From assembly GCA_014905635.1 (NCBI GenBank), contig JABVCE010000012.1:992001-1056000 (forward strand): a stretch of 64,000 nucleotides of DNA. The letters run 5' to 3'. The position numbers and the translations under genes were made by a program. The number at the start of each line of letters is the position of its first letter. The stretch's first letter is position 1. Positions 1-46,872 of this stretch are shown in pieces. Source of the stretch: Scenedesmus sp. PABB004. Lineage: Eukaryota. The notes beneath the pieces were generated by a model. It did no database searches. It saw only the letters and a list, made by a program, of their open reading frames with translations, and was not told the origin of the DNA.

Positions 1-98
1 GCTGTCAATAAATGAGTGTCGCACGAGCCGCGTGTGCACCGACAGCAATGTGCACTTGCTGTCAATAAATGAGTGTCGCACGAGCCGCGTGTGCACCG
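1..98 (+). repeat. 57-bp period direct repeat (41-nt identical core)
   Basis: gctgtcaataaatgagtgtcgcacgagccgcgtgtgcaccg occurs at 1-41 and 58-98, in frame. Confidence 0.95.
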
Positions 99-354
99 CG
101 TGCTGGCGCCACCCGCCGCCCAAGGGCATGCCCGCGTTCGGCATGCGCGTGCCAGGCACGTGCACGAGGGTCAGCAGCACCTGCTGGCGGCGGCGTTCCA
201 GCAGCAGCAGCAGCAGTAACGCGCGCTGCTGTACGGCCGCCGCCGTGGCGCAGCCGCAGCGCCGACGACGCCCCGCCTCCTCGCCCAAAGCCGCTTGCTT
301 CCAAAGTCACACCCCCGGCCACACACCGGCCGCACAGTCTCTCGTGACCTTTTG
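1..354 (+). mobile_element. Probable degenerate Fanzor/TnpB-like nuclease 3' fragment (truncated at window start)
   Basis: Frame 2 reads LSINECRTSRVCT-DSNVHL-LSINECRTSRVCTACW. This matches the (V/I)(D/N)E-x-(R/Y)TS-x-x-CxxC motif that precedes the zinc finger of TnpB/Fanzor proteins. The expected second CxxC and RDxN motifs are absent and a frame switch follows (ARHVHEGQQHLLAAAFQQQQQQ*, stop 217-219). A hairpin lies at 302-354. Confidence 0.5.
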
Positions 355-695
355 ACGCCGCTCCCGGCAACGCGGGGCCACGATGCTGCAGCCCACCAGC
401 GGCCCGCCGCACCTGGAGCGTAGCGCTCCGCGAAGGGGTGTGGCGTGGTGCGGGAGTGCCGCCACCGCGGCGCCGGCGCGCGGCGAGGAGCCGCGGGCGC
501 GCCGCGCCGCCGCCGCGCGGCGCGCTCGCCGAGCCGCCTGGCCGCCCGGGGGCCCCGCCAGGCCGCGCTCCTCCCACCGGGGGTGAACGCTCCTCCTTGC
601 CCTCCGTCCGCAGGCGAGCCGGCGCTCGCCGGGGACTGGGGCGCGCGGTGCGCGCCGCAGCAGCAGGCGGCGCCCGCCGACGCGGCGCGGCTCAC

Positions 696-2147
696 TCAGC
701 GCACGTGCTCGTGGGGCTGCAATCCCTGCTGTTGTTGCTCCAGCGGCTGCTGCTGCTGCTGCTCCTGCTGCGCTCCCGGCGGCGCGGGCAGCGCCGCCAC
801 CGGCTGCCGCCGCGCCGCGAGCGCGGCCGCGAGGCGGCGCCGCGCCGCAGCGCCGCGCGCGAGCACGGCACGCACCGCGACCGCGAGCAGGCGGTAACCC
901 CGCGCCGAGCACGCCTCCGCGGCGAACAGGCGCCACGCGCAGCGCCGCAGCAGCGCGGCGCAGTGCGCCGCCGCCGCGAGCCGGCCCGCGCCGAGCAGCG
1001 GCAGGAACACGGCCTGCGCGGCGGCCGCGGCAGGCGGCGGCGGCGCTCGCGCGTCAGAGCGCGCGCAGCAGCAGCGGCGCGCAGCAGCAGCGCGCCGCCC
1101 GCCCGCCGCGGCCCGCGCCGTCCCGTGCCTGCGCAATCACGCCGCCGACCGTCGCGCCGAGGGCCATGCCCGCAAACGCGTCCGCGTTGGGCGGCGCGGG
1201 CGTGAGGGCCATGAGGCTCGTGTACCACCACACCTGCACCATCGTCGCGCTGTCAAAGCGCTCGCGAATGGCGGCGAGGACCTCGGGGCTGGGCGGCTGC
1301 GCGCGGGGGGTGCGGTCGGCGGCCGGTGGGTCGCGGCGCGCCGCAGAGCGCGCAGAGCACGCGCGCGCCGCGCCCACCTGCCGCGCGCCGCCCAGCGGCA
1401 GCGTCACCGACAGGTGCCGCAGCGACTGCGCCGCCGGCGGGCGCTGCGGCGCGGCCGGCGGCGCCGGCGGCCGGCGCTGCGGCGGCGCCAGCAGCCGCGG
1501 CGGCGGCGCCAGCAGCCGCGGCGGCGGCGGCGGCGGCGCGGCGCTCTGTACCGCAGCTATGCTGCGGTACGTCGCCAGCGCCCTCAGCAGGCCGCTGGCC
1601 GCCACGTAGGCCCGCCACGCGCCGTGCAGGAGCGCAGCGATGGTGTACGGGTCGGCGAGCAGCGCCGGGACGAGCACCAGCGCGCCGCCCTCGCCCGGGC
1701 CGCCGCCGCCGGACGCGGCGAGGCCGGCCGTGTCGTAGCGCGCCTGGCAGACCTCGCAGCGAATCGCGCGCCGCGGGCGGCCCTGCTCGCGCGTGACCTG
1801 CAGCCAGTGCTGCGCGGGCGCGGCGGCCGCGGCGGGCGCGTCGGCGGGCCGTCAGTGTCCCATGCGTGCGGGCCGCTGCGCCGCCGCCGCTGTCGCCGCG
1901 CGGGCTGGCAGCGCGCCGGTGGTGGGCGCCGGGCAGCCTGGTGGCGGCGCCGGACCTGCAGGCACGCGACATGGATGTACGCCATGCTCCCCTTGCACTT
2001 GCACGGGCTGACCAGCGTGGCCGTGTCGTCGCCCCCCCAGCAGAGCCGGCAGCGGCGCCCGTCGCCGGCCTCGCTGGCGCTGCCCGGGGCCGCGCCGCCG
2101 CTGCCCGCCGCGCCGCCGGCGCCGACGCCGGCGACCGGGGCCGCCAT
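696..2147 (-). CDS. RING-CH (RINGv/MARCH-type) E3 ubiquitin ligase, 3 exons
   Basis: Spliced translation CRLCWGGDDTATLVSPCKCKGSMAYIHVACLQ|HWLQVTREQGRPRRAIRCEVCQARY gives a C4HC3 pattern. Hydrophobic segments follow. The second intron has a GC donor (CAG|gcacgg) and the stop TGA is at 696-698. Confidence 0.85.
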
Positions 2148-6656: not shown

Positions 6657-9600
6657 ATGCCCGGCGCCCTCGCCGCGGGCCTGCTGGCCCTGGCGCGCGC
6701 CCCGGCAGGTGCGGCGGCCTGGGGCGCTCCAGCGAGCAGCAATGGGCGCCGCGGGCGCGCCTGATTGGGCCCGGCCGCGCCCTGGGGGCGTCCGGGCGAG
6801 GCGCCTGCTGCTGCTGCCCCCGATCCCGCGCCCCCGCGCGCCGCCGCAGCCGGCGCAGGCCTGCTCCCGGCGGCCGGCCACGCCCTGAGCGTGCTGGGCG
6901 AGGCCCAGAAGCGCTGCCTGCACAGGTGCGGCGCGGCGCGTGCGCAGCAGCGGCGACGCCGGCGCGGCCACACGGCGGCGGCGCGGCAGCAGCGCCGGCA
7001 GCGGCGCTCGCTCACCGCCGCGCGCCCGCCCCGCAGCGGCCTGGCCGCGCCCCAGCATGGCCCCAGCAGCAGCGGCGGCCTGTCGGCGCTCGGCGGCGCG
7101 CCGAGCAGCAGCAGCGCCCCGTTCGTGCCCTTTGGCGCGCGCAGCGCGACCACGCAGCCGCTCGCGCCCCACAAGGTGCGTGGCGCCGGTGCTCGTCGCC
7201 GCTGCGCGGGGGGAGCGGGGCCGCACGCCCGCCCGCCCGCCACGCGCCGGCCCGAGCGCCGCCGCGCTGCCGCCGCGCCCTCCTCCCTGGTGGCCGCCCA
7301 CAGGTGAACAACTTCACGATCAACTTTGGGCCGCAGCACCCCGCGGCGCACGGCGTGCTGCGCCTCGTGCTGGAGATGAAGGGTGCGCGGCGCGGCGCGG
7401 GGAGGAGGAGGGGGGCCGGGCGGCCCGGCGGGGCGTGCGACGGCAGCGGCGGCGAGCCGCGGCGGCGGCGGCGGCGGCGGCAGCGAGCTGCGGCGGCCGC
7501 GCCGCCCACCGTGCCGCGCCGCGGGGCCGCAGGCGAGCTGGTGGAGCGCGCCGACCCGCACATCGGGCTGCTGCACCGCGGCACCGAGAAGCTCATCGAG
7601 TACAAGACCTACCTCCAGGTGCGAGCCAGGCGGCGAGCCGCGGCGCGGGCGGCGCGCAGGCTGCAGGACCCAGGCGGCACCTCCGCACGCCACGTGCCCC
7701 CCTCCTGCCCCTCCTCCCCCCTCCTGCCCCTGCCGCGCTCCCGACCGCCGTAATGCTGCCGTCATCACGCTGTCATAACGCAGGGCCTGCCCTACTTTGA
7801 CCGCCTCGACTACGTGAGCATGATGTGCATGGAGCACAGCTACGTCCTCGCGATCGAACAGCTGCTCAACGTCACCGTCCCCGCGCGCGCGCAGTACATC
7901 CGTGTGCTCTTCAGCGAGGTGCGGCGCCGCGGCGGCAGCGGCGCGGCGGCGCCCGCGGCGGGGGCGACAGGGGCTGCGCTGACGATGATGCGCGCGGCGC
8001 CCCTGCCGCTCTCTCCTTCCACGCGCTCCCTGCTTCCCGCACGCGCCCGCACCCACGCACACACCCACGCTCCGTCACACCCGCACACTCACACCCACAC
8101 CCCCTCCCTCACCCAGATCACGCGCATCATGAACCACCTGCTCGCCGTCACCTGCCACGCCATGGACGTCGGCGCGCTCACGCCCTTCCTCTGGGCCTTT
8201 GAGGCGCGCGCGCCCGCCGCACGCCGCCGCACGCACGCGCGCGCGCCCGCGCGCGCGCCCCCGCCCGCCCGCGCGCTGCTCACGCGCCGCCGATCGCCCC
8301 GCCTCCCTCCCGCCACGCACACACACGCGCTCGCGCGCGCGCGCAGGAGCGCGAGAAGCTGATGGAGTTTTACGAGCGCGTGAGCGGCGCGCGCATGCAC
8401 GCGGCGTACTTCCGCCCCGGCGGCGTGAGCCAGGACCTGCCGATCGGGCTGCTCAAGGACATCCACGACTTTGCGCGCCAGGTGCGCGCGGGCGTCGTGT
8501 GGGTGTTTGTGGTTTGTGTTTTTGTGGGTGTGTTTTTGTGGGTGGGTGGGTGGGTGGGTGCTGCAGGGCTGCAGGGCTCGGTCGAGGGCGTGGCGCGGAG
8601 CGCGCCCGCGCGCACGCGCGCGTGCGGCCGCGCGGCCGGGCGGCGTGGCCTTGGTGATGGGGGCCGTGCGGCGCCGGCGCCGGGGCCACGCCGCCCAGCC
8701 GCGCCGCGGCACGCGCGGCGCGCGCGCGCGCGCGCGCGCCGTGCTCGGGCCCCCTCCTCTGCGCCGCGCCTCGCTGCGCCGAGGGCGTGGCGCGGAGCGC
8801 GCCCGCGCGCACGCGCGCGTGCGGCCGCGCGGCCGGGCGGCGTGGCCTCCTGCTGTCCGGGCGTGCCGCGCCGGCGCCGGGGCCACGCCGCCCAGCCGCG
8901 CTGCCGCGCGCGCGCCGCGCTCGGCCCCTCCTCCTCCGCGCCGCGCCGCGCCGTGCCGCGGTGCGCCGCGCCGGCCCGCGCTGAGCCCCCGCCCGCCGCT
9001 GCCGCCGCCGCCCCAGTTTTCGTCGCGCCTGGACGAGCTGGAGGAGCTGCTGAGCGACAACCGGGTGTGGAAGGAGCGCACGGTCGGCATCGGGCTCATC
9101 ACCGCGCAGCAGGTGGGTGGCGGCGGCCTTTGCGCGGGGCGTAGGGTTGAGGGTTGTGTGGTCGCGGCCCGGGGTCGGGAGGCGGGCAGAGCGCGGGCGC
9201 GCACGGCCGCACGCCGCGCGCCCACGCGCGTCCACGCGTCTCCGCACGCGTCACCGCCCGCTCCGCCGCCAGGCGTGGGACTGGGGCTGCTCGGGGCCGC
9301 TGCTGCGCGCGAGCGGCATCGACTGGGACCTGCGCAAGGCGCAGCCGTACGACGCGTACGCCAAGATGGACTTCAATGTCCCCATCGCCGGCCACGGCGA
9401 CTGCTTCGACCGCTACCTGGTGCGACGGCGGCCCGGCGCACCCCGCGCGCGGCCGCGGCGGCGGCGGGGCGCACACGGGGCGGCGGGGCGGGGCGGGGCA
9501 CAGGCGGCGGCGCCGCCTCGCGCGCGGGGAGAGGTCGCGCGGGCGCCCCACGCGCCCGCGCGCCTGCCTGCCCGCGGGCAAGCACGCCGACCCCCGCCGC

Positions 9601-10597
9601 ACCCCAGCAACAACCCCGCGCCGCTGCCCTGCCGCCCTGCCGCCGGCAGGTGCGCATGCACGAGATGCGTGAGAGCCTGCGCATCGTGTTCCAGTGCCTC
9701 AACGAGATGCCCGAGGGGCCCTACAAGTCCATCGACGGCAAGGTGACGACGCCGCGCGGCACCGGCCACGGCCTGGGGCATGCGCCGCGGCGCAGCTGCT
9801 GCTGCGTCTGCGGCCGCGGCGTCGCGTGCGGCCCGCCGGCGCGCGCCGCGCTTCCTGCCCACGCCCGCCCACACTCGCCGCCGCCGCCCGCCCACCCGCG
9901 CTCGCCGCGCGCGCCGCGCGTGCCCAGGTCGCGCCGCCGAGCCGCGCGACGATGAAGCAGAGTATGGAGGCGCTGATCCACCACTTCAAGCTCTACACAG
10001 AGGGCTTCCACGTGCCCCCGGGCGAGACCTACAAGGCCGTCGAGGCGCCCAAGGGCGAGTTCGGCGTCTACCTCGTCTCGCGCGGCGGCAACAGGCCCTA
10101 CCGGTGCGGCGACGCTGGGCTCGCGCGGCGCGGCGCGGGGCTGCGCGGCGCGGCTCCGCGCGGGGCCGGCGGCGTGCGCGCGGCGCCGCCCGCCCGCGAC
10201 AGCACCCTCTGCGCGCTCGCCGACCTCGCCGCCGACCTCGCCGCCGACCTCGCCGCCGCGCGCGTGCGCGCGCAGGTGCAAGATCCGCTCGCCCGGGTTT
10301 GCGCACCTGCAGACGACCGACTTTATGTGCAAGCGCTTCATGCTCGCCGACGTGGTGCGCCGCGCGGAGGGGGGCAGCGGCGCGGACGGCAGCGCGCGGA
10401 CCGCAGCGCGCACGCGCGCGCGCGCGCGCGCGCGCGCGCGCTGGGGCCCCGCAGAGGCGGCGGCGCGCGCGTGCGGGGAGGGCCCGCAGGCTGCCTGTCA
10501 GCAGCTGCTGACCGCCGCCACGCGCCGCCGCGCCACCGGCACGCAGGTGACGGTCATCGGCACGCTGGACGTGGTGTTCGGTGAGATCGACCGGTGA
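6657..10597 (+). CDS. nad7: NADH:ubiquinone oxidoreductase 49-kDa subunit (NAD7/NDUFS2), nucleus-encoded, multi-exon; start codon tentative
   Basis: Exons encode [93 protein letters not shown] and [13 protein letters not shown]. Upstream exons encode a presequence-like region. Confidence 0.97.
8584..8900 (+). repeat. Direct duplication (about 197-bp period) inside a NAD7 intron
   Basis: gagggcgtggcgcggagcgcgcccgcgcgcacgcgcgcgtgcggccgcgcggccgggcggcgtggcct starts at 8584 and 8781. Each copy is followed by cgccggcgccggggccacgccgcccagccgcgc. Confidence 0.9.
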
Positions 10598-11545: not shown

Positions 11546-14500
11546 TCACACGCTCCACTCCAGCGCGAGCGGCTCGCCCGCGCGCGCGTCGAGGCCGCTG
11601 ATGCGCAGCGCGCCGGCCGCGGCGTCGTACTCGGCCGGCACCTCGCGCCCGCCGACGCGCGCCGTCGGCGCCGCGCCGGCCGCGGGCGCCGCCACGCCGA
11701 GCACGTGCACCGCCTCCACGCGCAGCGTGCGCGCCGCCTCGCCGCCGGCGGCCTTGACCGTGCTGGTCACGCTGCCACGCGTCGCGTCGGGCGCCGCCGC
11801 GGCGGTGAACCACACCTGCGCGCGGGGCGCGACAGCGCGGCACGCGGCGCCAGGTCGGCGGCGCGGCGCCCCCGCGACGCGGCGCGACGCGGCGTGGCGC
11901 GCGGCCAGCAGGGCGCGCTGCGCGCGCTGCGCGTGCTGTGCCGGCGCCGGCGCGCGCGCCTCACCTCGACGCTGTTGTCGGGCGTGACCTGGATGTTGTC
12001 ACCCTGGTCCATGTACAGAAGGCCGCAGGACACCAGGCTGCCCGCGTTCTTGGCGTGCGCCGCCGCGCAGCTCTCCTCGGCCGCGTACGGCGGCAGCGGC
12101 GCGCCCGCCGCGCGCGCGCCGCGCGACGGCTCGGCCGGCAGCGCCACGACGAGCGTGACGGGCGCGAGGCGGATGTCGCGCGTCACCGGCGCGTAGCCCT
12201 GCATCGGCAGCACCGCGCCGCCGCGGAAGTGTACCGGGATCTCACCCAGCGGCGCGTCGAGCGGCACGGCGCGGCCCGCCGGCGCCGAGAGGCGCGAGTA
12301 GTCCCACGCCGAGTACCTGGCGGCGCGCGGGGGTCGGCGCGCGGGGGGTCAGTGCCGTGCAGCTGTGCGCGCGCGTGCGGGCGCGGGCGTGAGCCGCATG
12401 TGTTCAACCCCCGCACCATGCGCCGGCGGTGAAGTAGGGGGTGACGGTCGTGGCGCCTGGCGCGACCACTGGGCTGATCAGCAGGCCCTCGCCCATCATC
12501 CACTGCGCCGACGCGTTGCTGCGAGCAGAGGCCACACGCGGCGGCGACGGCGGGACGCGGCGGCGGCCGCGCGTCAGCGCACCAGCGCGTGGCCACCGCC
12601 GCCGCGCGCGCGCATGCAGCCGCGCGCGCGCCGCCGCCGCACCGCGCGCCGGCGTCGCTCGGGTCGGTGAAGAGCAGCGGGCGCGCGACGGTGCCGCCCT
12701 TGGCGCTGGCGAGGTAGAAGGCGCCATAGATGTAGGTCAGCAGGCGGTAGCGCAGCCCGTACGCCTTCTTGGCCGACGCGGCGACGTCGTCCCAGCTGCG
12801 GGCGCGGCGGGCGGGGGCACAGGCGCCGGCGCGCGCGTTTTGTCAGCGCGAAGGGGGGCACGGGCGGCGGCCCCTCTCCCTCGTTCCCTCCCTCCCGCCC
12901 TCTCCCGCTCTCTGTCGCTCTCTCCCTCCCTCTCAACCCAGAGCCCTAAACCCCGAGCAAGCTCACAGGTAAAACTCGTGGCTGCGCGTGTTGTAGGCGT
13001 AGTGGTTGCGGCTAAAGGGGTAGAACGCGCCGAGCGAGGCCCAGCGGTTGCAGAGCTCCTGCAGCTCCGCGTCGCTCAGCGGCGGCGCGCCGGGCGCAAA
13101 GCCGGTGTCCATGAAGCCGCAGATGTCGGCGCCCGCCATCGGCATGCCCCACATGTTGGTGTTCACGATGCCTGCGGCGCAGGACGCGGGGCGGGGGCGA
13201 CGCGCCGCGTCAGGACGCGCGGCGGCGGGGGGCGCTGCGTGAGGGGGGCGCTCGCGGCGGCGGCTGCGCGCCGCGCGCGGTGCGTAGCCAGCCGGCAGCA
13301 TTTGCGCACGGCCCGCGCCGGAAACGCCCCCGCGTCGCCCCCGCGCCGCCGCCGCCGCCGCCGCACCCGCGATGGACATGTAGAGGTTCTCCCAGTTGAC
13401 GCCGTTGTCGCCCGTCCAGTGCGCCGTCCACTTGCCCGCGCCGGGGAAGGTCGACCTGCGCGGTCGTGCGACGCGCGGCGCGGCGCGGCGGCGTCCGAGG
13501 CTGCGCGCGGCGCGCGCGGCAGCGGCTGCGGCGGCGGGGCGCTCGCGCGTGCGGGGTGTGCGCCACCCCTGCGGAGCGCCGCCGCCGCGCACCGCGTGAG
13601 CAGGAAGGGCCGCTTGCCGGTGACCTCGGCGACGCTGTTGTAGTGCGCCCAGGCCATGGAGGTGCCATAGAGGTTGTGCGCGTCGTACTCGCGCGCGCCG
13701 TTGGCGTGCTCTGCGGCGGCCGGCCGCGGCAACACACGGTCGTGTCGTGCGCGCGCCATCAGCGCGGCGCACGGGGCGTGCGAGTCGCCACCGCCGCCGC
13801 CGCCTGCCCCCTCCCGTCCCCTCCTTCCGCTCGCACGCCCGCGCGCCCCCGCGCGCGCGCGGAGGCTCACTCGCGGAGGGCGAGATCGTCTTCCAGCCGA
13901 GCGCCGCGCCGCGGTCCTCCGGCTGCCCGCTCTGCCCAAAGTTGGCGATCGCGTACGGCGGGTGCTCGAGCGTGTTGTCCGCCGGCGGCGCCTCGCAGCG
14001 CATCTGGCAGCTCGTGCGGAAGGGTATGAGCTCGCTGATGTTGTAGTCGCGCGGCGTCTCCACCTGCAGCCCTGCGCGACACAGGGGCGCGCGCGCGCGC
14101 GGGCGGCGGCGGCGGCGGTTCAAACCTTTGTCCGAGGGACGCCGCGCGGCGCGGGGCCGGCCCCCGAGCGCCCGCGCCGGCGCGCCGGCGCGGCAGCGCG
14201 CGCGCCGCCGCGCGCGAGCCCAGCCCCGCCCCCGCTCCCGCTCCCTCGCCGGCGCGGCGCGGCGCGGCGCGGCGCGCTCACAGTGCATCGCGGTGATGTT
14301 GCGCGTGTCGGGCACGCAGTTGAGGCCGCTGCAGAAGCTGCTTGCCTCGTTCATGTCCAGCCACAGCCCGTCATACGGCACCTGCCGCAGCGGACGGCGC
14401 GGGCGGCGGGCGGCGGCGCGCGCGCGCGTCGTCGGCCGGGGCTCCACGCCGTGGCCCGCGCGCGCGCGCGCGCGCGTGCGCGAGGGCGCGCGCGCCGGCG

Positions 14501-16408
14501 AGCGCGCGGCGGCGCGTGCGGCGGCGCGCCTGCTCGTGCATGTGGCGCAGCTCGCGCGTGAGCCAGGCGCTGGTGCGGGGGTTGTCGAGGTAGTCGGGGT
14601 AGACCGTCTTGCCTGCGGGCGGGTTTGAAGCGCGCGAACAGTGACAGACTGCATTTGAACCGGCCCTGACACCTCACTCTCACTGTCCCTCTTTCTCTCC
14701 GCCTCTTTCTTTTCGTTGACGACCCTGCTGCCTGTGAGCCGCGGCCCGCCGCCGCCGCGGCCCGCCGCCGCCGCGTCCGCGTCCGCCGCACCTGGCCAGA
14801 CCTGGCCCATGTAGTCGACGCCGCTCTCGTCCGTGATCCACACGCGGTCGCGGCTGCCCTCCTCAAACGCGCGGTAGCCCTTGTCCGCGGCGATGCCGGC
14901 GTCCTGGATGGCGACCCAGTGCTGCCCCCGCGCGTGGAGGCGGTCCACGAGGTGCCGCATGCCGTCGGCGGGGTACCGGACTGCGCGCGGGGTTACGGGG
15001 GCGGCGGCCGCGGGCGGTGGGCGGGTGCGGACCCGCTGACGTCACGCTGGCGAGCGCCGGCTCGCCAACGCCGCGGGCCCGCAACACTGAGCGCGGGCAG
15101 CGCGGCGCCTCAACACTCACACTCGTCAAACTCCATCGTCCAGAAGCGCGTGGGCATGTACTCGATGTCCGACCACACCGTCTCGAGCGGCAGCCCGGTC
15201 GCGGTGTAGTTGTCAACCACACTCTCCAGCACGGTCATATTGGAGTAGCCCCACCTGGCCCGCCAGACAGCAGCAGGGCGGGCGGCGGCGGCCGGGCGAG
15301 TGGCGGCCCAGCGCGCGCGGCGCGGGGGGCGCCGCCGGCCGCTGCGCGGAGTGCTCCCCGCTCCAAGCGCGCGCGCGCGCGCCGGCGCGGCCTGCCCGCG
15401 GCCTTGCGCGCACCGCGTCTGGTGGAAGCCGAGGGACCAGTAGGGCGGCAGCGCCGGCGCGCCAATGACGGCGTGGTACTGCCGGATGACCTCCTCGGGC
15501 GAGGGCCCCGTGAAGAAGTAGAGGTCCACCAGGCCCCCGATCACCCTGGTTGCGAGCGCAGCGCAGGGGAGGGGCGGGAGCGCAGGTGAGATGGCCGCGG
15601 CAGCGGGCGGCGCGGGCCGGCAGCCGACCGCGCCGCGCCAAGGGGGGGTACGGTCCCCGCTCGCAGCTTGCGCGCCTGTAGGTGAGGCTCGTCGCGTTGA
15701 GCAGCACGTCCATGCCGTTGGAGTTGAGGAACAGCACGCCGTGGGTGCTGCCGTCTGGGCGGGGGCGGCGCGCCGCGCGCGCGGCGTCAGCGCAGCCCAC
15801 GCCACCGCGCCGGCGCCCGCCGCGGCCGCCGCTGCGGCCTCCCCCGCCGCTCCCCGCCGCCTCTCCCGCCGCCGCTCTCCCGCGCTCTGGAGAGGCCCTC
15901 CCGCTCCCTCGCTCACCCTTGGCAACCTGCAGGTAAAAGGGGTGGCTGCCATAGAGGTTGGCATAGGGCAGCGCCGACGCGAGGTCGCGCGCCCAGAGCG
16001 TGAGCACGCTGCCGTCGCGCGGCAGCAGCATGCCCGTGGGCAGCGAGACCTCGCCCAGGCCGTACAGGTCGGCGTCGGCCGGCACGGTGGTCGTGAGCTC
16101 GATGAACTGGTCCTTGAAAACAAAGCTGCAAGTGGCGGCGCGCGAGCAGCCGTGATGGCCGGCGGCGGGCGCGCGCGCGGCGGCCGCAGGTGCGGCGCCG
16201 GCGCCGGCGGGTGCGGCGGCGGCGCCGGCGGCGCGGCGCACCGGTGGCCGCGCGTGTCAAAGATCGGCTCGCCCGTGGAGGCGCGCGTCACGGTGAGCGC
16301 AAACGGCTCGCCCGGCGCGCCGGTGCTGACGTCATAGGTCAGAGCCTTGGCGCTGAGCCCCGCCTGCGCGCCGGGCCTGCGGGCCGGGTGCGGCGCGTTG
16401 GGCGCAGT

Positions 16409-16451
<43 letters not shown>

Positions 16452-17326
16452 CCACCGCAAGGGCCGCCGCAGCAGGAGCGCGGGCAGCGCCCGCGGCGCT
16501 GCGCGCGCCGCCCCCGGCGGTGCCGCTGGGCGCCGCCGCGCGTGCCTCGCGCGAGCGGCGCTGCACACGGAGCTCACCGCTGCACGATGAACTCCGGCAC
16601 CTCCCAGCGCGTGCTGCCGTCGTTGGGCTGCACCTTCACGTGCAGCCGCGTCGCCGTCTCGGGTGTCACCTCCACCCGCAGCTCCTCGAACGGCGTGCCA
16701 TACTCTGGCACGGGGTCGCTGGCTACCCGCACGGTCGCCACGCGCGCTCCCGCGGCGTCTGCACGCGCGGGCGCGGGGCGCGGCGGCCGCGCCGGCGCGC
16801 GTTGGTCCAGCTGGGCGCTGCAGCTGCGCCCGGGCGGCCCGGGGCTGCCTCTGGCGGCCGGATGTGGGCGGGGCGGCGCCCGGGCGAACGATCGGCGGCG
16901 CCGCCGCGGCGCGCCGCGCGCAGCCAGGCCCGCCGGCGCCCACCTGCCGCGGCGTCAACTGCTGTCGTGGTGTAGGTGGCTTGCCGGGGCGCGCCTGCGG
17001 GTCGGGGGGCCTCAGTGAGCTCGCGCGCTGCCCCTGAGCCGCGCGTGGCGGGGCGCCGGGCCGGGGGCGCGCCGGGCTGCCGACTCGCGCCATCGCCTCC
17101 CACGCCCCCGGCTGGCAACGACGCCTGTGCCCGATCGCAGCGCGCCGCCGGCCGCGGGGAGCTGCCACGATCATTTCCAGCACCCCTACGTGCTCGCGCC
17201 GCGCCCGCGCGCGCCGCACGCCAGTGGGCGCCACGCCAGCAGCAGCACACCTGCTGCGGCGCCGAGGCAGCATGCCAAAAAAACAGCGAGCCCTGGCACG
17301 CGGGCGCGACACCGGCTGCGGCCCAT
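11546..17326 (-). CDS. GH31 alpha-glucosidase, copy A (inverted, divergent paralog), multi-exon
   Basis: N-terminal hydrophobic MGRSRCRARVPGLAVFLACCLGAAAGVLLLAW. Motifs RLHVKV...[42 protein letters not shown], catalytic [48 protein letters not shown]. Ends LALEWSV*. Confidence 0.93.
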
Positions 17327-18240
17327 GATCGGCGCCAGCGATGCGCGGGCCGGAGTGATGGCGGGCGGCGCCTGCGCGTGGCCGCTGGGCCTGGGCAAGC
17401 CTGGCAGCTTGCGCGTGTGCCTCCTGGGTCTCCGGTCAATCTCACGAGCACGGCAGAACGGGCGGGGCCGCGAGCGGCGAGCTGGCTGTCTGGTGGGCGG
17501 CCTCGCGTCCAGCCGCCTGCCCGGAGGACGCCCGATGGCGGCCAACCGCTACGTCGTAGCCTTGGCGAGAGTGACTCCCGGAAAAGCGTCACGGCGCTGT
17601 GAACGCGACTGGGCTCGGCGCGCGAGGAGCAGCGAAGAAATCGACATGGCGGGCGCGCGCGGGGCGCAAACGAGCTTCCGAAAGGTCGTGCTGTGTCAAA
17701 TGCGTATTCATTTGATCGGGGGCCAACCACGCGAGGCTAACGTCAGGCCAGCATCATTTTTTTCCAGTGCTCGCGCTCGTCTCTGACGCCCGACGCCGCT
17801 CGTTCCGGGCCCACAAGCTCGCCCCGGCTCTTGCTCTGCATCCCCCACGTCGCGACAGGCCTGGCAGGCGATGCGCGCGCTCGCTCAGACTGCCGCGCCG
17901 CCGCCAGCGCGGCCGCCGCGCCGCCGCCGGCTTGGCCCGCCCGGCCGGCCAGCCGCTCAGCTGGCTCTGGTGCCGAAGCTGCAGGTCAGAAACGGCTTCG
18001 CTGCTTTTTCACGCATCCGCGACTGGGTGGAGGTCACGGCGGCCTGGCCAGGCCAAAACAGCTGCTGCAGCGGTTGGCCGGGCACGGGCACGATGACCCG
18101 ATACGATGCAAAAGCTCCCGCCGCAGCCCGCATAGACGCTTTTAGTCGCAAAAGAACTGGTGGCCTACTACGCTCGCAGCCACGGGCAGCGCACGCCCCA
18201 CGCCACACGGCTGCCGCCTCGCCGCCCCTCCTCCGCTGCC

Positions 18241-21200
18241 ATGGCGCGGCTGCGCGCCGCGCTGGCGCTGGCGGTGGCGCTCGCGTTCGTCGCATCTGCT
18301 GCCGGCGAGGCGCGGGAGCCTGCGGGTGCGCCGCCGGCGCGCGGCCGCCGCAACCGCTGGCGGCGGGACGGACCCACGAGAGCGGCCGGCCGCGCCGCCG
18401 CCCGACCCCTCGCGCAGGTGCAGGTGGCAGCAGCAGCGGCAGCGGCGCTCCGGCCGCTGACTGGCGCACATACCGCGTGCAGCGCACCGCACCGCGGCGC
18501 GGGGTCAGCGGCGCCTCCGCGCTCGGCGCGGCCTCGCAGCTGCGCCTCGCGACGGAGCAGCTGCCGGCGTACGGGCCGTCGTTCAAGGACCTCACCGTGG
18601 AGGTCATGCCGGAGAGCGCGGCGCGGCTGCACGTGAAGATCGCGCCCACGGGGCAGCGGCGCTGGGAGGTGCCCGAGAGCATCATCAAGCGGTGCGCGCG
18701 ACGGGACGGGGCGCGGCGGCGGCCGCGCATCGCCGACCCAGACCGCCGCCTCGCCGCGCGCCGCGCCGCGCCGCACCACCCGCCACCCGCCCTGTCGCCG
18801 CCGCGCAGGCCGGGCGTGCAGGCGGGGCTGGCCGGCGCCGACCTGGCGTACGACGTTGCGCTGTCGCAGCCGGCGCGCCGCAGCCAGGGCCAGGGCCAGG
18901 GCAGCGGCGAGCCCTTTGCGCTGACCGTCACGCGCCGTGGGAGCGGCGCGCCGATCTTTGACACGCGCGGCCACCGGTGCGCGGCGCCGCCGCCGCCTCT
19001 CTCCAGCAGCCCCTCTCTCCAGCGCGCACGGCTCACGTGCCGCCACTCGCCGCGCCGCAGCTTTGTGTTCAAGGACCAGTTCATCGAGCTCACCACGGCG
19101 TTGCCGGCCGACACTCACATCTACGGCCTCGGAGAGGTCACGCTCCCGGGCGGGCTGCTGCTGCCGCGCGACGGCAGCGTGATCACTCTGTGGAACCGTG
19201 ACCTGCCAGCCGCCGAGCCGCACGCCAACCTCTACTCCAGCCACGCCTTTTACCTCGCCGTCGCCGCCGACGGCAGCGCGCACGGCGTGTACTTCCTCAA
19301 CTCCAACGGCATGGACGTGCTGCTCAACGCGACCAGCCTCACCTACAGGCGCGCAAGCTGCAAGGGGGGACCGCACCACCCCTTGGCGCGGCGCGGCCGG
19401 CTGCCGGCCCGCGCCGCCAGCCGCCGCGGCCCCCTCACCTGCGCTCCCGCCCCTCCCCTGCGCTGCGCTCGCAACAACCAGGGTGATCGGGGGCCTGGTG
19501 GACCTCTACTTCTTCACGGGACCCTCGCCCGAGGAGGTCATCCGGCAGTACCACGAGGCGCGCGCCGCGGCCGCGGTGGCAGCCTCGGACGGGCGCGCGC
19601 GCGCGCAGCCCGCAGTGCAGCCGACCCGCCCCGCCCCGCTGCGCTCGTGGCCGTGCCCAGGTGATTGGCTTCCCGGGGCTGCCGCCGTTCTGGGCGCTCG
19701 GCGCACACCAGGCGAAGTGGGGCTACTCCACCGTCGGCGTGGTCGAGGCTGTCGTGGCCAACTACAGCGCCGCGGGCATTCCCCTCGAGGGCGTGTGGGT
19801 GGACATTGAATACATGAATAGGTGAGCGCCTAGGCCTTGCCAGCAGCATGCTTGTGCGTCGTCATGCCTGCTGCACGAGCTCGGCTCGGCGGCAGACTCA
19901 ATGAGCAGGGCGCCTGCGCCGCGGCGGCGTGCCGCGCGCCCCGCACGTCACCAACGCCACCGCTCCGCCCCGCCCCGCCGCGCCGCGCCGCCAGCCGCTT
20001 CCAGACGCTGACGCTCGACCCCGTGCGCTTCCCGCGCGACCGCATGGCCGCGTTCGCGGGCCGCTTGCACGCCGCGGGGCAGAAGTGGGTGCCCATCCAT
20101 GACGCCGGCATCGCTGTGGCGCGTGGCTACGCCGCGTACGAGAGTGGCAGCGCCGCGGACGTGTGGATCAAAGACCACACCGGGCGGCGGGACTACCTCG
20201 GCCAGGCGCGGCGGCGCCGCCGCCGCCGCCGCCGCCACCGCCCGCGCCATGTGCCCCGCGTCGCCGTGTGCCCCACCAGCCCCGCGTCGCCGTGCAGCCT
20301 TGAGCGCTGCACCCCGCTCCCTCTCACACACCCGCCCACGCACCCATGCACACGCAGGTGTGGCCAGGGCCCACCGTGTACCCAGACTATCTCTCCCACC
20401 CCAACGTCACCGCCTGGCTGACGCGCGTACTCGCAGACTTCCATGCCCAGGTGCGGGGCGGCACCCCGCAGGGGCCTCGCGCAGCACCGTGCCCCGCGCC
20501 CCGCGTGAGGCCGTGCGCTCACGCCGCCGCGCGGCGGTGCGGGGCGCAGGTGCCGTTTGACGGCCTGTGGCTGGACATGTCCGAGGCCTCCAACTTTTGC
20601 AGCGGCATGACGTGCGTGCCCGACACGGCCAACGCGGTCGCCATGAAGTGTGAGCGACGCCGCAAGCGCGCCGGCAGCGCGCGCCCGCCCGCCCGCACTC
20701 AGCTGCTTGTCGGCTGGCCGCCGACGCCTCGCCCCCGCCGCGGCCGCCCGCGCGCAGGGCTGGAGCTGCCGACGCCTGCTGACTACAATATCTCTACCCT
20801 CATCCAGCCGCGCACAACGTGCCAGCTCAAGTGCGAGCCCGCGCCACCGGGCAACACGCTCGGCCACCCGCCGTACGCGATCCACAATTTCGAGCCCGCG
20901 ACCAAGACGCGCGACGCACCCATCAGCAGCGAGGTCATCCATCCGACCGCCAGTGAGCGGCGCGCGGACGGGCCAGCGCCCGCTGGACAAGCGCCAGCGC
21001 TGGCTTGCGCAGGCGCCTGACGTGCGGCCCGCCCCGTCGGCGCACGCCACTCGCAGAGCACGCCGACGGCGCGCTCGAGTATGATGCACACAGCCTCTTC
21101 GGCACGGCCATGGCCAAGGCGCACTTTGAGGCGTTCGCCAAGGTCACCGGCAAGCGGCCGTTCCAAATCCTGCGGTGCGGTGCACGCCGCCGCAGCCGCG

Positions 21201-23251
21201 CTGCACACGTGCGGCCGGCCGGCGGCCGCGCCTGACTCGCGGGGGCCACGTCCGCGGCGCGCAGGTCCACCTTCCCGGGCGCCGGCAAGTGGACGGGCCA
21301 CTGGTGCGCGCGGCTCGCGGCGCACAGGGCGCGGCGGCCGCGTCCGGCGGGCCGGCGTTGACGCGGCCGTTCCGCGCGCCTGCTTGCAGGACGGGCGACA
21401 ACCGCGCGACGTGGCAGGGGCTGTTCGAAAGCATCGCGAGTACGCTCAACCCGAGTCTCTGGGGCATCCCAATGTGCGCTGCGCCGCCCGCGGGCCTGGC
21501 CAGCCCGCGCCCGCCCGCCGGGCGCTCACCCATGCTTGCCCGCGCGCCGCCGCCGCGCGCTCCAGGGTTGGGCCGGACGTGTGTGGCTTCATCGACACCG
21601 CAAAGGCCAGCCCGGAGCAGATGGGCTTCAACGGCATGGGCGGCGGCGTTGCGGGCGTCGCCTCGGCGAGCGGCGCGCTGCCGGACAGCGAATACGAGGA
21701 GCTCTGCAACCGGTGCGCGCGCTGGAGAGACGTGGGCCGGGCCGGGGCGCTCTGGGCCGCCGCTGCCGGGCCACCGCGGCCCGCGCCCGCTGACCGGCCG
21801 CTGCGCCCGCGCACGCACGGGGGCCAGGTGGACGAGCGCCGGCGCCTTTTACCCATTCCTGCGCAACCACATGGGCTACTTTGCGCGCCACCACGAGCCC
21901 TACCGGTGCGCCGCTCAAGCGCAGTGCGCAGCTCAGCACGCACGGCGCACCGCCCGGGCGGCGGCCGAGTGCCGCGCCACGCCCCGCCCCGCGCCGCCGC
22001 CCCGCCCCGCGCCGCGCAGCTGGCCGGCCGTCGCGGCGGCGGCGCGCAAGGCGTACGGGCTGCGCTACCGCCTGCTGACTCACTTCTACGGCGAGCTCGC
22101 ACTTGTCGCGGCCAAGGGCGGCACGCTCGCGCGCCCGCTGCTCTTTGCAGACTCCAGCGACGCCGGCGCGCGGTGCGGCGCGCGGCAGCGCTGGCCCGCT
22201 CGCGCGTGCCGCGGTGCAGGCGCACGGCCGCCCAGCACGCGGGCGCGGGCTCAAGCGACAAGCGGCGGCCGCCGTTGCCGCGCCGCCTGGTCGCAGGAAC
22301 GCCACGAAGCAGTGGATGATGGGCGAGGTGGTGCTGGTCAGCCCCGTGATCACGCCCAACACCACCACCGTCAGCGCCCACTTCACCGCCGGCGCATGGT
22401 GCGGCCCGCGCGCGCCGGCCCGCACGCGCGTGCACACCTGCACCGCGCCCACCCCCCGCCGCCCCGTGCGCCGACCCGCGCGCCGCCAGGTACTCGGCGT
22501 GGGACTACTCGCGCCTCTCGGTGCCGGCGGGCCGCGTCGTGCAGCTCGCCGCGCCGCTGGGCGAGGTCCCCGTGCACTTCCGTGGCGGCGCGGTGCTGGC
22601 GACGCAGCCCGCGCGCGCGCTCGTCACGCGCGACGTGCGCTTTACCCCCGTCACACTCGTCGTGACGCTGCCGGCCGCGCCGAGCGGTCCGCGCGGCGCG
22701 GCGGCCGGGCGCGGGGCGGCGCCGCGCCGCCGGGCGCTCGCGCCGTACGAGCTCGAGCCCGAGTGCGCCGCCGCACACGCGGCCAACCCGGGGCACCTGG
22801 TGTCCTGCGGTTTGCTGTATCAGGACGACGACGCGCTGGCGGTCACGCCCGACAACAGCCTGCTGGTGCGCGCCGCGGCGCGGCGCGGCGCTCGCGCTCG
22901 CGCCCGCGCCTTTTCGCCGGCCTCGGCGCGGCACGGCCTCCCTCACGCGCGTCTGGCCGCGCTGTCGCACCCCGCGCGCAGGTGTGGATCACCGCCGCGG
23001 CGGCGCCCGACGCGACGCGCGGCAGCGTGAACAGCACGGTCAAGGCCGCCGGCGGCGAGGCGGCGCGCAAGCTGCGCGTGCAGGCGGTGCACGTGCTCGG
23101 CGTGGCGGCGCCCGCGGCCGGCGCGGCGCCGACCGCGCGCGTCGGCGGGCGCGAGGTGCCGGCCGAGTACGACGCCGCGGCCGGCGCGCTGCGCATCAGC
23201 GGCCTCGACGCGCGCGCGGGCGAGCCGCTCGCGCTGGAGTGGCGGCTGTGA
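18241..23251 (+). CDS. GH31 alpha-glucosidase-like, copy B, multi-exon
   Basis: Signal peptide [22 protein letters not shown]. Motifs [54 protein letters not shown]. Ends LALEWRL*. Confidence 0.93.
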
Positions 23252-24014
23252 ACTGCTGCGGTGATCGTCACAGGGGGTGGGCATTGGCCGCTGTAGAGAG
23301 TGAGTTGATTTTTGTATCACGCGCGTAGAACAAGGAGCTCACCGGCGTGGCCTCACGCCAGCGCGCTCGCCCGCCGCCCGTTGTCCTGCGTGCCGCGCGC
23401 CGCGTGCCGCGGCGGCCTGCACAGCCAGCAGCTGGCTGCAGCACAGCCAAGCACGCGGCCCGGCAGCGACGGGCTGCCCGTCGCAGCGTTCGGGAACGCC
23501 GTGGGTGCGGTGTCGGCGACTGCAGGCGGCGGTGCCGACCCGCAGGGTCAACCAGCTCCAGCGTCTGCGGCGCCGTGCCAGGGCGCAAGCGCAAGCGCCG
23601 TGCACGCCGCCACGAGCCGCGGACGTCACCGACCGCCCCTCAGAGGCACTTTTCTGCTCCGGCTGCCCTGCCTGCGATGGAGCGGCCCCTGATGAGTCAC
23701 GGAAGCGCAAATCAGGCTTCTGCGAGCATGATCGGCCAAGTGGACGCAGCAGCGCGCGAGGTGGTCGGCAATGTTCGTCGTGCGCCTGCATGCGGAAGTG
23801 TGAAACCGCTCGCCGTACCTTCCTGAGACGTGCTACGCGCAGCTACTCAGCTTGCCCACACGCGCTCGAGCCTCTGTAGCCGCGCCACTGCACACACGAC
23901 GCATAGGGTTTGACGACTGTTTCGGGCGAACGCGCGCCTCGCGCGCTCGCAGCCGCGGGCAGCACACGCCCCACGCCACGCGGCGCTCCGACGCCGCCCT
24001 CCTCCGCGGCTGCC

Positions 24015-27000
24015 ATGGCGCGGCTGCGCGCCGCGCTGGCGCTGGCGGTGGCGCTCGCGTTCGTCGCATCTGCTGCCGGCGAGGCGCGGGAGCCTGCGGG
24101 TGCGCCGCCGGCTCGCGGCCGCCGCAACCGCTGGCGGCGGGACGGACCCACGAGACCAGCCGGCCGCGCCGCCGCCCGGCCCCTCGCGCAGGTGCAGGTG
24201 GCAGCAGCGGCGGCAGCGGCAGCGCCGCTCCGGCCGCTGACTGGCGCACATACCGCGTGCAGCGCACCGCGCCACGGCGCGGGGTCAGCGGCGCCGCCGC
24301 GCTCGGCGCGGTCTCGCAGCTGCGCCTCGCGACGGAGCAGCTGCCGGCGTACGGGCCGTCGTTCAAGGACCTCACCGTGGAGGTCACGCCGGAGAGCGCG
24401 GCGCGGCTGCACGTGAAGATCGCGCCCACGGGGCAGCGGCGCTGGGAGGTGCCCGAGAGCATCATCAAGCGGTGCGCGCGACGGGACGGGGGCGCGGCAG
24501 CGGCCGCGCATCGCCGACCCAGACCGCCACCGGCTCGCGCCGCGCCGCGCCGCACCACCCGCCACCCGCCCTGCCGCCGCCGCGCAGGCCGGGCGTGCAG
24601 GCGGGGCTGGCCGGCGCCGACCTGGCGTACAACGTTGCGCTGTCGCAGCCGGCCCGCCGCGGCCAGGGCCAGGGCGGCGGCGAGCCCTTTGCGCTGACCG
24701 TCACGCGCCGTGGGAGCGGCGCGCCGATCTTTGACACGCGCGGCCACCGGTGTGTGGCGCCGCCGCCGCCTCTCTCCAGCGCGCACGGCTCACGTGCCGC
24801 CACTCGCCGCACCGCAGCTTTGTGTTCAAGGACCAGTTCATCGAGCTCACGACGGCGTTGCCGGCTGACACTCACATCTACGGCCTTGGCGAGGTCACGC
24901 TCCCGGGCGGGCTGCTGCTGCCGCGCGACGGCAACGTGCTCACTCTATGGAACCGCGACCTTTCCACCTCCGAGCCGCACGCCAACCTCTACTCCAGCCA
25001 CGCCTTTTACCTTGCCGTCGCCGCCGACGGCAGCGCGCACGGCGTGTACTTCCTCAACTCCAACGGCATGGACGTGCTGCTCAACGCGACCAGCCTCACC
25101 TACAGGCGCGCAAGCTGCAAGGGGGGACCGCACCACCCCTTGGCGCGGCGCGGCCGGCTGCCGGCCCGCGCCGCCAGCCGCCGCGGCCCCCTCACCTGCG
25201 CTCCCGCCCCTCCCCTGCGCTGCTGCCCGCGACCAGGGTGATCGGGGGCCTGGTGGACCTCTACTTCTTCACGGGACCCTCGCCCGAGGAGGTCATCCGG
25301 CAGTACCACGAGGCGCGCGCCGCGGCCGCGGCCACAGCCTCGGACGGGCGCGCGCGCGCGTGCAGCCCGCAGTGCAGCCGACCCGCCCCGCCCCGCTGCG
25401 CTCGTGGCCGTGCCCAGGTGATTGGCTTCCCGGGGCTGCCGCCATTCTGGGCGCTCGGCGCACACCAGGCGAAGTGGGGCTACTCCACCGTCGGCGTGGT
25501 CGAGGCTGTTGTGGCCAACTACAGCGCCGCGGGCATTCCCCTCGAGGGCGTGTGGGTGGACATCGACTACATGAACAGGTGAGCGCCTAGGCCTTGCCAG
25601 CAGCATGCTTGTGTCTCGTCATACCTGCTGCACGAGCTCGGCTGGGCAGCAGGCACGAGGCTCCGCGCGCCCGCGCCGCGGGGGATTGCACCACGACCCG
25701 CACGTCACCAACGCCACCGCCCCACCGCGCCCCGCCGCGCCGCGCCGCCAGCCGCTTCCAGACGCTGACGCTCGACCCCGTGCGCTTCCCGCGGGACCGC
25801 ATGGCCGCGTTCGCGGGCCGCCTGCACACCGCGGGGCAGAAGTGGGTGCCCATCCATGACGCCGGCATTGCTGTGGCGCGTGGCTACGCCCCGTATGAGA
25901 GTGGCAGCGCCGCGGACGTGTGGATCAAGGACCACACCGGGCGGCGGGACTACCTCGGCCAGGCGCGGCGCCGCCGCCCGTTGCCGCCGCTGGCCGTGCA
26001 GCTCTGCGCCCTGAACCCTCTCCCTCCCACACACCCGCACACACGCGCACCCACTCACACCCAGGTGTGGCCGGGGCCCGCCGTGTACCCAGACTACCTC
26101 TCCCACCCCAACGTCACCGCCTGGGTGACGCGCGTACTTGCAGACTTCCAGGCCCAGGTGCGGAGGCGCCAGCTGGCCGGGGCCTCGGACAGCACCGAGC
26201 CCCGCGCCCCGCGCCCCGCGTGAGGCCGCATGCTGACGCCGCCGCGCGGCGGCGCGGGGCGCAGGTGCCGTTTGACGGCCTGTGGATTGACATGTCCGAG
26301 GCCTCCAACTTTTGCAGTGGCATGACCTGCGCGCCTGACAGGGGCAACGAGGCTGCCATGAAGTGTGAGCGACGCCGCAAGCGCGCCGGCAGCGCGCGCC
26401 CGCCCGCCCGCACTCAGCTGCCTGTCGGCTGGCCGCCGACGCCTCGCCCCCGCCGCGGCCGCCCGCGCGCAGGGCTTGATCTGCCAACACCGGCCAACGA
26501 CAACATCTCTGCCCTCATTGAGCCGCGCACGACGTGCCAGCTCAAGTGTGAGCCCTCGCCGCCGAACAACACGCTCGGCCACCCGCCGTATGCGATCCAT
26601 AACTTTGACGCTACGACCAACAAGCGCGACGCACCCATCACCCGCAAGGTCATCCATCCGACCGCCAGTGAGCGGCGCGCGGACGGGCCAGCGCCCGCTG
26701 GACAAGCGCCAGCGCTGGCTTGCGCAGGCGGCCGACGCGTGGCCCGCCCTGCACGCGGCGCGCAGAGCACGCCGACGGCACGCTCGAGTACGATGCACAC
26801 AGCCTCTACGGCACCGCCATGGCAAAGGTGTACTTCGAGGCGTTCGCCCAGGTCACCGGCAAGCGGCCGTTCCAAATCCTGCGGTGCGGCACGCGCCGCC
26901 GCAGCCGCGCTGCGCACGTGCGGCCGGCCGGCGACCGCGCCTGACTCGCGCGGGCCACGTCCGTGGCGCGCAGGTCCACCTTCCCGGGCGCCGGCAAGTG

Positions 27001-28938: not shown

Positions 28939-29741
28939 ACTGTTGATCGCCGCAGGGGGTTGGGCATTCGTCGCTGTCATCTCTTGAAGACAAAGACAAA
29001 GATAGTTACACCACAGGCTCGCGCCCATTGGTCCCGCGCCTTCACTTGTGTTGTTTTGCCGCGCAGGACTGACATTTAACCATGGCCTCACGCCAGCGCG
29101 CTCGCCCGGCGCAGGTCGTGCCGTGTTCCGCGCCGCGTGCCGCGCCGGCCTGCACAGCCAGCTGGCTGCAGCCGAGCACGCGGCCTGCACAGCCAGCAGC
29201 TGGCTGCAGCGCAGCCAAGCACGCGGCCCGGCAGCGACGCGTGCGGCAGCGCCGTGGGTGCGGTGTCGGCGACGGCACCGGCGGCGGTGGCGGTGGCGGT
29301 CCGGGCACCCCTCGCAGGGCCCACCTCGCCGCCAGCGAGTGCCGGCCGCGCGCAAGCGCCGCGCACGCCGCCGCGCGGCATCGTGTGTCACTCGCCGAGA
29401 GGCACTCACTGCTGCGCGCCTGTGTTGGAGCAGCCGCGCAGAGCGGCGGGCGGTCATTCCGGCTCAATCAAGCGTGACCGGGGACGCCGGAGCGAGGTTG
29501 GTCGGCGAATCATCGGCGAACTGAAGTGTGAGCGCGCGGACACCCGACGCCGTACCCTCCCAGACGTTTGCAAACGCGAATTCCATGCTTGTGTGCACGT
29601 GATCGGTCTTTTGAGCCCGCGCGAGCGCTAACGCAAGCTTAGGGTTTCCTCGCGTTCGGCAGCAGAGATCGCACGCAGCCACGGGGGCCGCACGACCGAT
29701 CACAACACTCGCATATGACTTGTGGGCCTCCAGCAGCTGCC

Positions 29742-34731: not shown

Positions 34732-35379
34732 ACTGCTGATCGCCGCAGGGGGTTCGTCGCTGTCATCACTTGTGTTGTTTTGCTGCGCAGGAGGGAGTCG
34801 ACTGACATTTAACCATGGCCTCACGCCGGGGCGCTCGCCCGGGGCCGGTCGTGCCGCGTTCCGCGCGCCGCGTGCCGCGGCGGCCTGGACAGCCAGCTGG
34901 CTGCAGCCGAGCACGCGGCCCGGCAGCGACGGCCTGCGTGGGGCAGCGCAGTGGGTGCGGTGTCGGCGACGGCACCGGCGGCGGTGGCGGTCCGGGCACC
35001 CCTCGCAGGGCCCACCAGCTGCAGCGTGTCACGGCCACGCGCCAGGGCGCAAGCGCCGCGCACGCCGCCGCGCGCCGCAACCGCCGAGCCCGCGCCGCGC
35101 CATCGTCAGTCACGGACACACGCGCACTCGCCGAGAGGCACGCCGCCTGCGATCACACCACACGAGCGCCCGCCGCTGCAGCGCACGCCCTCGCGCCGCG
35201 CCGCGGGACCGTCAATTCGAGGTCGTGAGGTCCACGAGCCGCACCGACGCGTCCCGTCTGGGGGGCGGCCTGTCGCGGCCCCGCGCCGCGCCGGGAGGAG
35301 CGTGAGAGCAGCAGCAGATGCCCGCCCCCTGCCGCTAGCGGGCTCGCCAGGCCGCTAGGGGGCTCGCCAGGCCGCCGTG

Positions 35380-38300: not shown

Positions 38301-38543
38301 CCGCAGCGCCTCGGCGGCGGCGCCGCCGCTGGCGCCGGCGGCGGCCGCTTCGTGCGCGTGCCGACGTGCCCCGAGTCGGCGCTGCCCGGCGCCGGCGGCG
38401 GCGGCGAGGACGCAGACGCGGACGCGGCGCTGGAGGAGGGCGGCGCGCAGCGGCAGCAGCAGCAGCAGCAGCAGCAGCGGCAGCGGGCGGGCGGCGACGG
38501 CGAGCTGTCGGCGCCGCTGCTGAACGGCGGCGGCAGCGAATGA
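35380..38543 (+). CDS. NRAMP: NRAMP divalent metal (Mn/Fe) transporter, multi-exon
   Basis: Exons encode [84 protein letters not shown] and [14 protein letters not shown]. Confidence 0.96.

Positions 38544-46836: not shown

Positions 46837-46872
<36 letters not shown>

Follow-up and report, generated by a model that had tools for sequence, protein, structure and literature searches.

The first 106 nucleotides of the window, by which is meant the whole 64,000-nucleotide stretch of DNA analysed here, probably represent a Fanzor1 gene fragment that is degenerate and no longer functional and that has undergone a recent 57-bp in-frame tandem duplication. The source would have been a Fanzor1 gene of the green-algal-transposon type, its nearest published relatives being CRe-4 and CRe-5 as given in Additional file 3 of PMC3627910. 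The remnant would comprise the final RuvC-fold strand with the relocated RuvC-II glutamate, followed by a T-S pair and the first cysteine pair of the zinc finger, the second cysteine pair and the RuvC-III aspartate (W-x-R-D) having been lost. A recent slippage-type event may have copied the Glu/T-S/first-Cys stretch as a unit of 57 bp (19 codons, in frame, 100% identical). The fragment presumably descends from a Fanzor1-bearing mobile element, and the remainder of the gene, or its breakpoint, would lie upstream of the window edge.

Repeat structure and reading frame

The start of the window contains the following features:

1..41, plus strand: repeat copy 1; LSINECRTSRVCT in frame 2, with D following at the junction; Glu codon at 14-16
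42..57, plus strand: rest of the 57-nt duplicated unit; frame 2 reads ..DSNVHL
50..106, plus strand: Fanzor1-like peptide VHLLSINECRTSRVCTACW, made up of a hydrophobic strand, the alternative RuvC-II Glu (71-73), T-S (80-85) and the first CxxC (92-103)
58..98, plus strand: repeat copy 2, with 100% identity to 1-41; continues into ...CTACW
107..355, plus strand: open tail of frame 2 (RHPPPKGMPAFGMRVPGTCTRVSSTCWRRRSSSSSSSN...), with a stop at 353-355
199..216, no strand assigned: (CAG)6 microsatellite in the tail

Positions 1-41 recur on the plus strand at 58-98 with 100% identity and a start-to-start spacing of 57 nt, which bears out the claim of the earlier note that the motif stretch is duplicated at this period. 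A 27-nt probe with up to three mismatches allowed detects exactly two sites in 64 kb, where 100 shuffles gave an expectation of 0, and no further copy of the repeat DNA or of its peptide is present elsewhere in the 64-kb window. The 57-nt repeat is not in the TRF listing because fewer than two full copies are visible. From the window edge, frame 2 (LSINECRTSRVCTDSNVHLLSINECRTSRVCTACWRHPPPKGMPAFGMRVPGTCTRVSSTCWRRRSSSSSSSN...) runs without interruption up to the stop at 353-355, and across the repeat region it reads ...LSINECRTSRVCTDSNVHLLSINECRTSRVCTACW....

The geometry of the repeat fits a simple tandem duplication with a 57-nt unit starting 16 nt upstream of the window edge, from which it follows that 42-57 would be a copy of the 16 nt just upstream of that edge. 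The earlier note had also described the Glu/zinc-finger motif as duplicated, which is true only in part for the CxxC: copy 2 carries a complete pair (CTAC), and copy 1 reads CTDS, without a CxxC, because the duplication junction falls at 41/42. The tail at 107..355 may be Fanzor-derived and decayed, or it may be unrelated to Fanzor.

Independently of where the motif came from, the 57-nt duplication might have been created by misassembly at the edge of a contig or of the window. The two copies match with 100% identity and the repeat begins at base 1 of the window, both of which favour such an artefact, and repeats are often located at assembly breaks. There is, however, no sign that the window edge coincides with a contig end, and misassembly is considered quite unlikely.

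Catalytic and zinc-finger motifs

In the description of Fanzors in PMC10711439, RuvC-II is reorganised such that its glutamate ('Ealt') precedes the zinc finger by six residues, and RuvC-I is represented by D-P-G 120-160 residues upstream of this glutamate. The shared motif set out by Bao and Jurka (2013) in PMC3627910, in which Fanzor1 is listed from Chlamydomonas, Volvox and Chlorella, is D-X(125,275)-[TS]-[TS]-X-X-[C4 zinc finger]-X(5,50)-RD. In the window peptide, the glutamate stands six residues ahead of the first CxxC (E(71-73)-CRTSRV-C(92-94)TAC), and T-S-R-V-C-T-A-C provides the [TS]-[TS]-X-X that precedes the C4 zinc finger. The earlier note was therefore correct in its claim of a relocated-Glu Fanzor motif, which is in register with the definitions given in these two sources.

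Translated in six frames, the window has a single match to the pattern E..[TS][TS]..C..C, compared with ~0.03 occurrences expected per 64 kb of Markov-simulated sequence, which is unusual for a single window but not for a whole genome. At the composition of the window, the core motif would arise by chance about once in every 2 Mb, which amounts to many occurrences in a genome and to a very large number over a large scan. These frequencies favour an accidental resemblance, in which 1-220 would be ordinary sequence without coding function, from an intergenic region or from a 3' UTR where two genes converge, with a short tandem duplication and, by chance, a Fanzor-like 19-mer; this origin is judged rather unlikely, given the residues that flank the core (see below).

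The second CxxC and the RDxN, which the earlier note had listed as lacking, are indeed missing from the frame-2 reading and from a window-wide motif search. No second CxxC was found 12-35 residues past the first, where there are single cysteines only, at +23 and +30 after CTAC, and RD.N[AGS] has 0 matches across the whole window. No RuvC-III W-x-RD is present near the locus, W-R-R-R occupying the expected place, and the 10 matches to W.RD in the window comprise 4 in GH31 genes and 6 in Arg-rich frames. The RuvC-I pattern [GL][VIL]DPG, whose expected place is upstream of base 1, has 0 matches in six frames within the window, the second half of the Fanzor1 profile has none in any frame near the locus, and no transposase, Helitron or recombinase signature adjoining the locus was seen inside the window.

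Two candidate continuations of the gene were rejected. Resumption of the Fanzor frame past a frameshift or intron was discarded on the grounds that the second-half profile, W.RD and RD.N are all without a match near the locus. Downstream of the peptide, CTRVSSTCWRRR was aligned by eye to the green-algal C-N-x-C-x-T-x-W-x-R-D block with the Trp as anchor, giving an ungapped fit of 4 of 15 columns, and this correspondence is not claimed.

With the second cysteine pair and the RuvC-III Asp (W-x-R-D) gone, the fragment would be unable to bind zinc properly or to cut DNA and, as judged from its sequence, cannot be a working Fanzor protein. The missing 3' motifs are compatible with internal deletion, as proposed in the earlier note, and also with truncation or simple decay.

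Comparison with green-algal Fanzor1 proteins

At the corresponding place in Additional file 3 of PMC3627910, the Chlamydomonas reinhardtii proteins CRe-4 and CRe-5 read RHVIMINEYRTSMVCANC and AHVVIVNEFRTSRVCFEC, respectively. The window sequence VHLLSINECRTSRVCTAC is identical to CRe-4 at 10 of 18 positions and to CRe-5 at 10 of 18, as counted by eye. The window and both proteins, as printed in that supplement, have the succession H-hydrophobic strand-N-E-x-R-T-S-x-V-C-x-x-C, including an Asn ahead of the Glu, where Asp is commoner, and the next Cys lies 19 residues on in the window and 21 residues on in CRe-4 and CRe-5. Unlike these two proteins, the window peptide has Cys in place of an aromatic residue after the E and Trp in place of Gly after the CxxC, is without a second CxxC and W-[NDG]-R-D-x-N, and contains 19 duplicated codons, with ~19 recognisable residues. 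The N-terminal 600-800 residues of the CRe-4/CRe-5 type are off the window or absent here.

A position matrix was assembled from the residue sets at 16 constrained columns in six proteins (CRe-1 to CRe-5 and CVu-1), taken from the supplement without an aligner. The peptide matches 12 of these 16 columns, scoring 26-33 bits, the four mismatches being V to L, hydrophobic to S, Y/F to C and G/E to W; the second-best real site in the window scores 5.8 bits. By exact convolution of the full 19-column score, 2e-4 chance matches are expected per 100 Mb with the amino-acid background of the window, and 0.04-0.05 with a local or 50%-GC background.

The core E..TS..C..C had been preselected by the first reading, so the fair test is confined to the 11 remaining columns. 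Conditional on the core, 7 of the 11 flanking columns match, with P=3e-6 for the window background, 3.5e-5 to 6.9e-5 for a local background and 1.4e-4 to 1.8e-4 for uniform codons, a result that is stable over three pseudocount settings. These values come from a column-set test that was formalised after the match was seen and that draws on only six sequences from one supplement; the worst-case P becomes ~4e-3 if corrected for the ~20 taxon groups in Additional file 3. Within these bounds the resemblance to Fanzor proposed in the earlier note is upheld, the flanks matching the green-algal CRe-4 and CRe-5 sequences of the supplement far above chance. The conditional flank probabilities, the full 19-column score (no more than 0.05 chance matches in 100 Mb, a 50%-GC background included) and the 10/18 identity to two published Chlamydomonas Fanzor1 proteins all argue against an accidental origin. 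A point against descent from Fanzor1 is that the recognisable similarity spans only ~19 residues.

The alternative Glu position of the window is also common to the PF07282 TNB zinc-ribbon and to the Fanzor1 structures 9cf0 (Parasitella), 8gkh (Spizellomyces) and 9cer (Guillardia), and the T-S-x-x-CxxC that starts a PF07282-type TNB domain is present. The window peptide has no significant match to PF07282, however, and lacks the RuvC-III Asp and one half of the C4 finger. The green-algal, Helitron-type Fanzor1 elements CRe-1, CRe-2 and CRe-3, as described in PMC3627910, exist mostly as broken copies that are 5'-truncated or internally deleted, and short Fanzor relics are accordingly to be expected in genomes of this kind. 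The 3' ends of those copies are intact, whereas it is the 3' part of the gene that is missing from the window relic, and the window yielded neither element termini or hairpins nor further copies like those of CRe-1, CRe-2 and CRe-3.

Generic Fanzor1 profile

Loci from giant viruses and metagenomes were used to derive a broader Fanzor1 profile. With a degenerate DNA pattern for [VI]DE[FY]xT[ST]xxCxxCG, 27 loci of giant-virus or viral origin were retrieved, the full CxxC...CxxC...RD-x-N tail being present in nearly all of them, and an HMM was built from 22 distinct C-terminal segments (19 locus segments and the proteins P0084, P0094 and P0095). The locus is the best site in the window for this HMM, with 6.3 bits compared with 2.3 bits for the next site. 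The same score is reached 7 times per 3 Mb of order-2 Markov sequence, or ~0.15 times per 64 kb, a rate that favours chance, and 94 times in 3 Mb simulated under local composition.

An alignment of 15 of the 19 locus segments (A1) was also prepared, with L013, L017, L018 and L023 dropped as near-duplicates of L009, L016, L006 and L010, respectively. All 15 members match PF07282, and the best PDB matches of the A1 profile are the Parasitella, Spizellomyces and Guillardia Fanzor1 structures and mimivirus L79. Aligned to the window peptide with hhalign, this profile covers 20 columns with P=0.002 and a probability of 14%. The generic profiles are suggestive of Fanzor1 and insufficient alone.

Among the giant-virus-associated Fanzor1 sequences, those of two IMG/VR MAG contigs (L019 and L022) and P0094 have the C-terminus …TWDRD.N…LLL.HLLLG, which is nearer to the tail of Chlamydomonas CRe-4 and CRe-5, as given in the supplement, than are the other viral Fanzor1s. 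This similarity of sequence hints at a link between viruses and algae for the L019/L022/P0094 lineage. The L019 copy has an N-terminal SVEP repeat.

Library and database searches

Similarity to TnpB/Fanzor HMMs, which the earlier note had proposed as a check, was not found in the standard libraries: the frame-2 peptide matches 0 Pfam and NCBIfam families at E up to 10, PF07282 and the TnpB models included, and only the self-built Fanzor1 profile is weakly positive. In the PDB sequences, phmmer returned a sole match, to Cas7 (E=1.3), which is irrelevant. An exhaustive phmmer search of 1.84 billion representative proteins gave 5 matches, all to tandem-repeat proteins with 3-8 short stretches each; these were rejected as artefacts, the 4 that were fetched of the 5 being clearly unrelated to TnpB/Fanzor. 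A word-index protein search with the peptide yielded 1 candidate and 0 scored matches, and the protein atlas gave no usable match (recognition 1159).

Searches of viral and metagenomic DNA gave similar results. A peptide-based pattern had 38 matches in viral contigs, with 0 confirmed relatives, and the viral scan for NE[FY]RTSxVCxxC returned 1 locus, a chance match. Back-translated INECRTSRVC had 0 matches in the metagenome scan. The pattern [DN]E[FY]RTSxVCxxCG identified 5 metagenome loci, namely one full Fanzor1 (L029), two partial ones (L030 and L031) and two chance matches (L028 and L032), with 0 GC-rich members among the 5. The whole L019 protein as query gave 88 matches, 87 of them from its Ser/Val/Glu/Pro repeat and one (P0084) a true Fanzor/TnpB relative; its C-terminal 151 residues gave 2 matches, and P0094 as a single sequence gave 0 matches in the PDB. 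No green-algal Fanzor1 was among the proteins retrieved by these searches.

That the peptide goes unrecognised by every library and database search is a further point in favour of an accidental resemblance. It also illustrates a limit of the method, a 19-residue relic being invisible to standard HMM libraries and to phmmer against 1.8 billion proteins, and recognisable solely against lineage-specific relatives.

Neighbouring genes

Host genes identified elsewhere in the window include the following:

696..2147, minus strand: RING-variant (RINGv, MARCH-type) zinc-finger host gene (PF12906, E=3.8e-8)
8429-9952, plus strand: housekeeping exon pieces
35795-38578, plus strand: housekeeping exon pieces
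45113-48084, minus strand: housekeeping exon pieces
53077-54420, minus strand: housekeeping exon pieces
56493-59396, plus strand: housekeeping exon pieces

The last open frame of the RINGv gene ends at ~696, which places the locus ~480-690 nt beyond its 3' end; a position just past the 3' end of a host gene is compatible with the ordinary non-coding DNA of an accidental resemblance. In the RINGv gene itself, the RINGv domain is followed by hydrophobic, membrane-like stretches in other open frames.

The housekeeping pieces encode the Complex I 49-kDa subunit (Complex1_49kDa), an Nramp metal transporter, TCP-1/cpn60, a tRNA methyltransferase HUP domain and a protein kinase, and they confirm that the DNA is that of an intron-bearing eukaryote with a GC3 of ~0.92. 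Intron-split gene pieces that match Pfam are those of Complex1_49kDa, GH31, Nramp, TCP-1/cpn60, protein kinase and RINGv. The window also contains three tandem copies of a GH31 (alpha-glucosidase-like) gene on the plus strand at 17800-35000, with a period of ~5.7-5.8 kb and most segments 90-99% identical. An inverted GH31 copy lies just upstream, at 12600-16600 on the minus strand, and is more diverged, with 77-93% identity over 166-207-nt arms. From its sequence, the GH31 array looks like a recent local gene amplification.

Composition and coding status

The GC content of the window is ~78% throughout (mean 0.779). The earlier note had described the DNA of the locus as less GC-rich than host exons, which holds for 1-99 (0.566, or 56.6%, within the lowest 0.4% of 99-nt windows, versus 0.679 in Pfam-verified exon pieces); in 98-220, GC is 0.72. 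Islands with GC of at most 0.60 number 27 in the window. Low GC was therefore rejected as a sign of foreign origin, and the presence of 27 comparable AT-richer islands favours an accidental resemblance.

The length of the open frame is no guide to coding status: stop-free frames of at least 150 codons number 295 over the six frames of the whole window at ~78% GC, and ORF length is therefore worthless as coding evidence here. The 48 longest frames, all of at least 401 aa, were scanned, and 14 have any Pfam match. Codon usage was assessed with a model trained on 771 codons of Pfam-verified exon pieces, with leave-one-out tests. The log-likelihood per codon ranges from 0.45 to 1.16 in all 14 of the 14 verified exon pieces, from -0.79 to 0.55 in their antisense wobble-sharing frames and from -2.09 to -0.26 in their other frames. 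Without the (CAG)6 run, the per-codon score of the locus is 0.06 for plus frame 2 and 0.14 for the minus frame.

These values bear on the proposal that the locus is a host exon unrelated to Fanzor, likeliest in the wobble-sharing minus-strand frame (...GTRMPNAGMPLGGGWRQHAVHTRLVRHSFIDSKCTLLSVHTRLVRHSFIDS, running off the window edge), in which case the Fanzor-like reading would be its antisense. GC periodicity is strong in 98-220, with values by codon position of 0.44/0.80/0.93 in frame 2 and 0.80/0.44/0.93 in the wobble-sharing minus frame, the latter being the more exon-like (verified exons, 0.64/0.47/0.92), and the codon score of the minus frame is slightly the higher of the two. Both codon scores, however, are under those of all 14 verified exon pieces and within the antisense range, the apparent codon periodicity is inflated by the (CAG)6 run in the tail, and the minus-frame peptide has no Pfam match at E up to 10. 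A host exon would also leave the lineage-specific Fanzor1 match unexplained, and this proposal is regarded as very improbable. The locus is exon-like on neither strand, and its low codon score is as expected of a decayed foreign fragment, not of a host exon.

Implications for green-algal Fanzors

A degenerate Fanzor1 fragment at the start of the window would most likely be an ordinary, inactive new example of known Fanzor1 relics. The relic alone matters little, as broken green-algal Fanzor copies have already been described in PMC3627910. Its value is that of a pointer, suggesting this genome as a past host of a Fanzor1 element of the CRe-4/CRe-5 type.

It is possible, though doubtful, that the relic is the trace of a Fanzor1 family, with CRe-4 and CRe-5 as relatives, in this ~78% GC, intron-bearing eukaryote; intact, perhaps even active, copies of that family might then be present elsewhere in the genome or directly upstream of the window edge. 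If true, this Fanzor would be adapted to a genome of unusual composition and would be one more case of the sporadic, probably laterally acquired, Fanzors of algae; a sporadic distribution of Fanzors across green-algal genomes is reported in PMC12633428. Intact copies, if any, could extend the known set of eukaryotic RNA-guided nucleases by a GC-extreme Fanzor.
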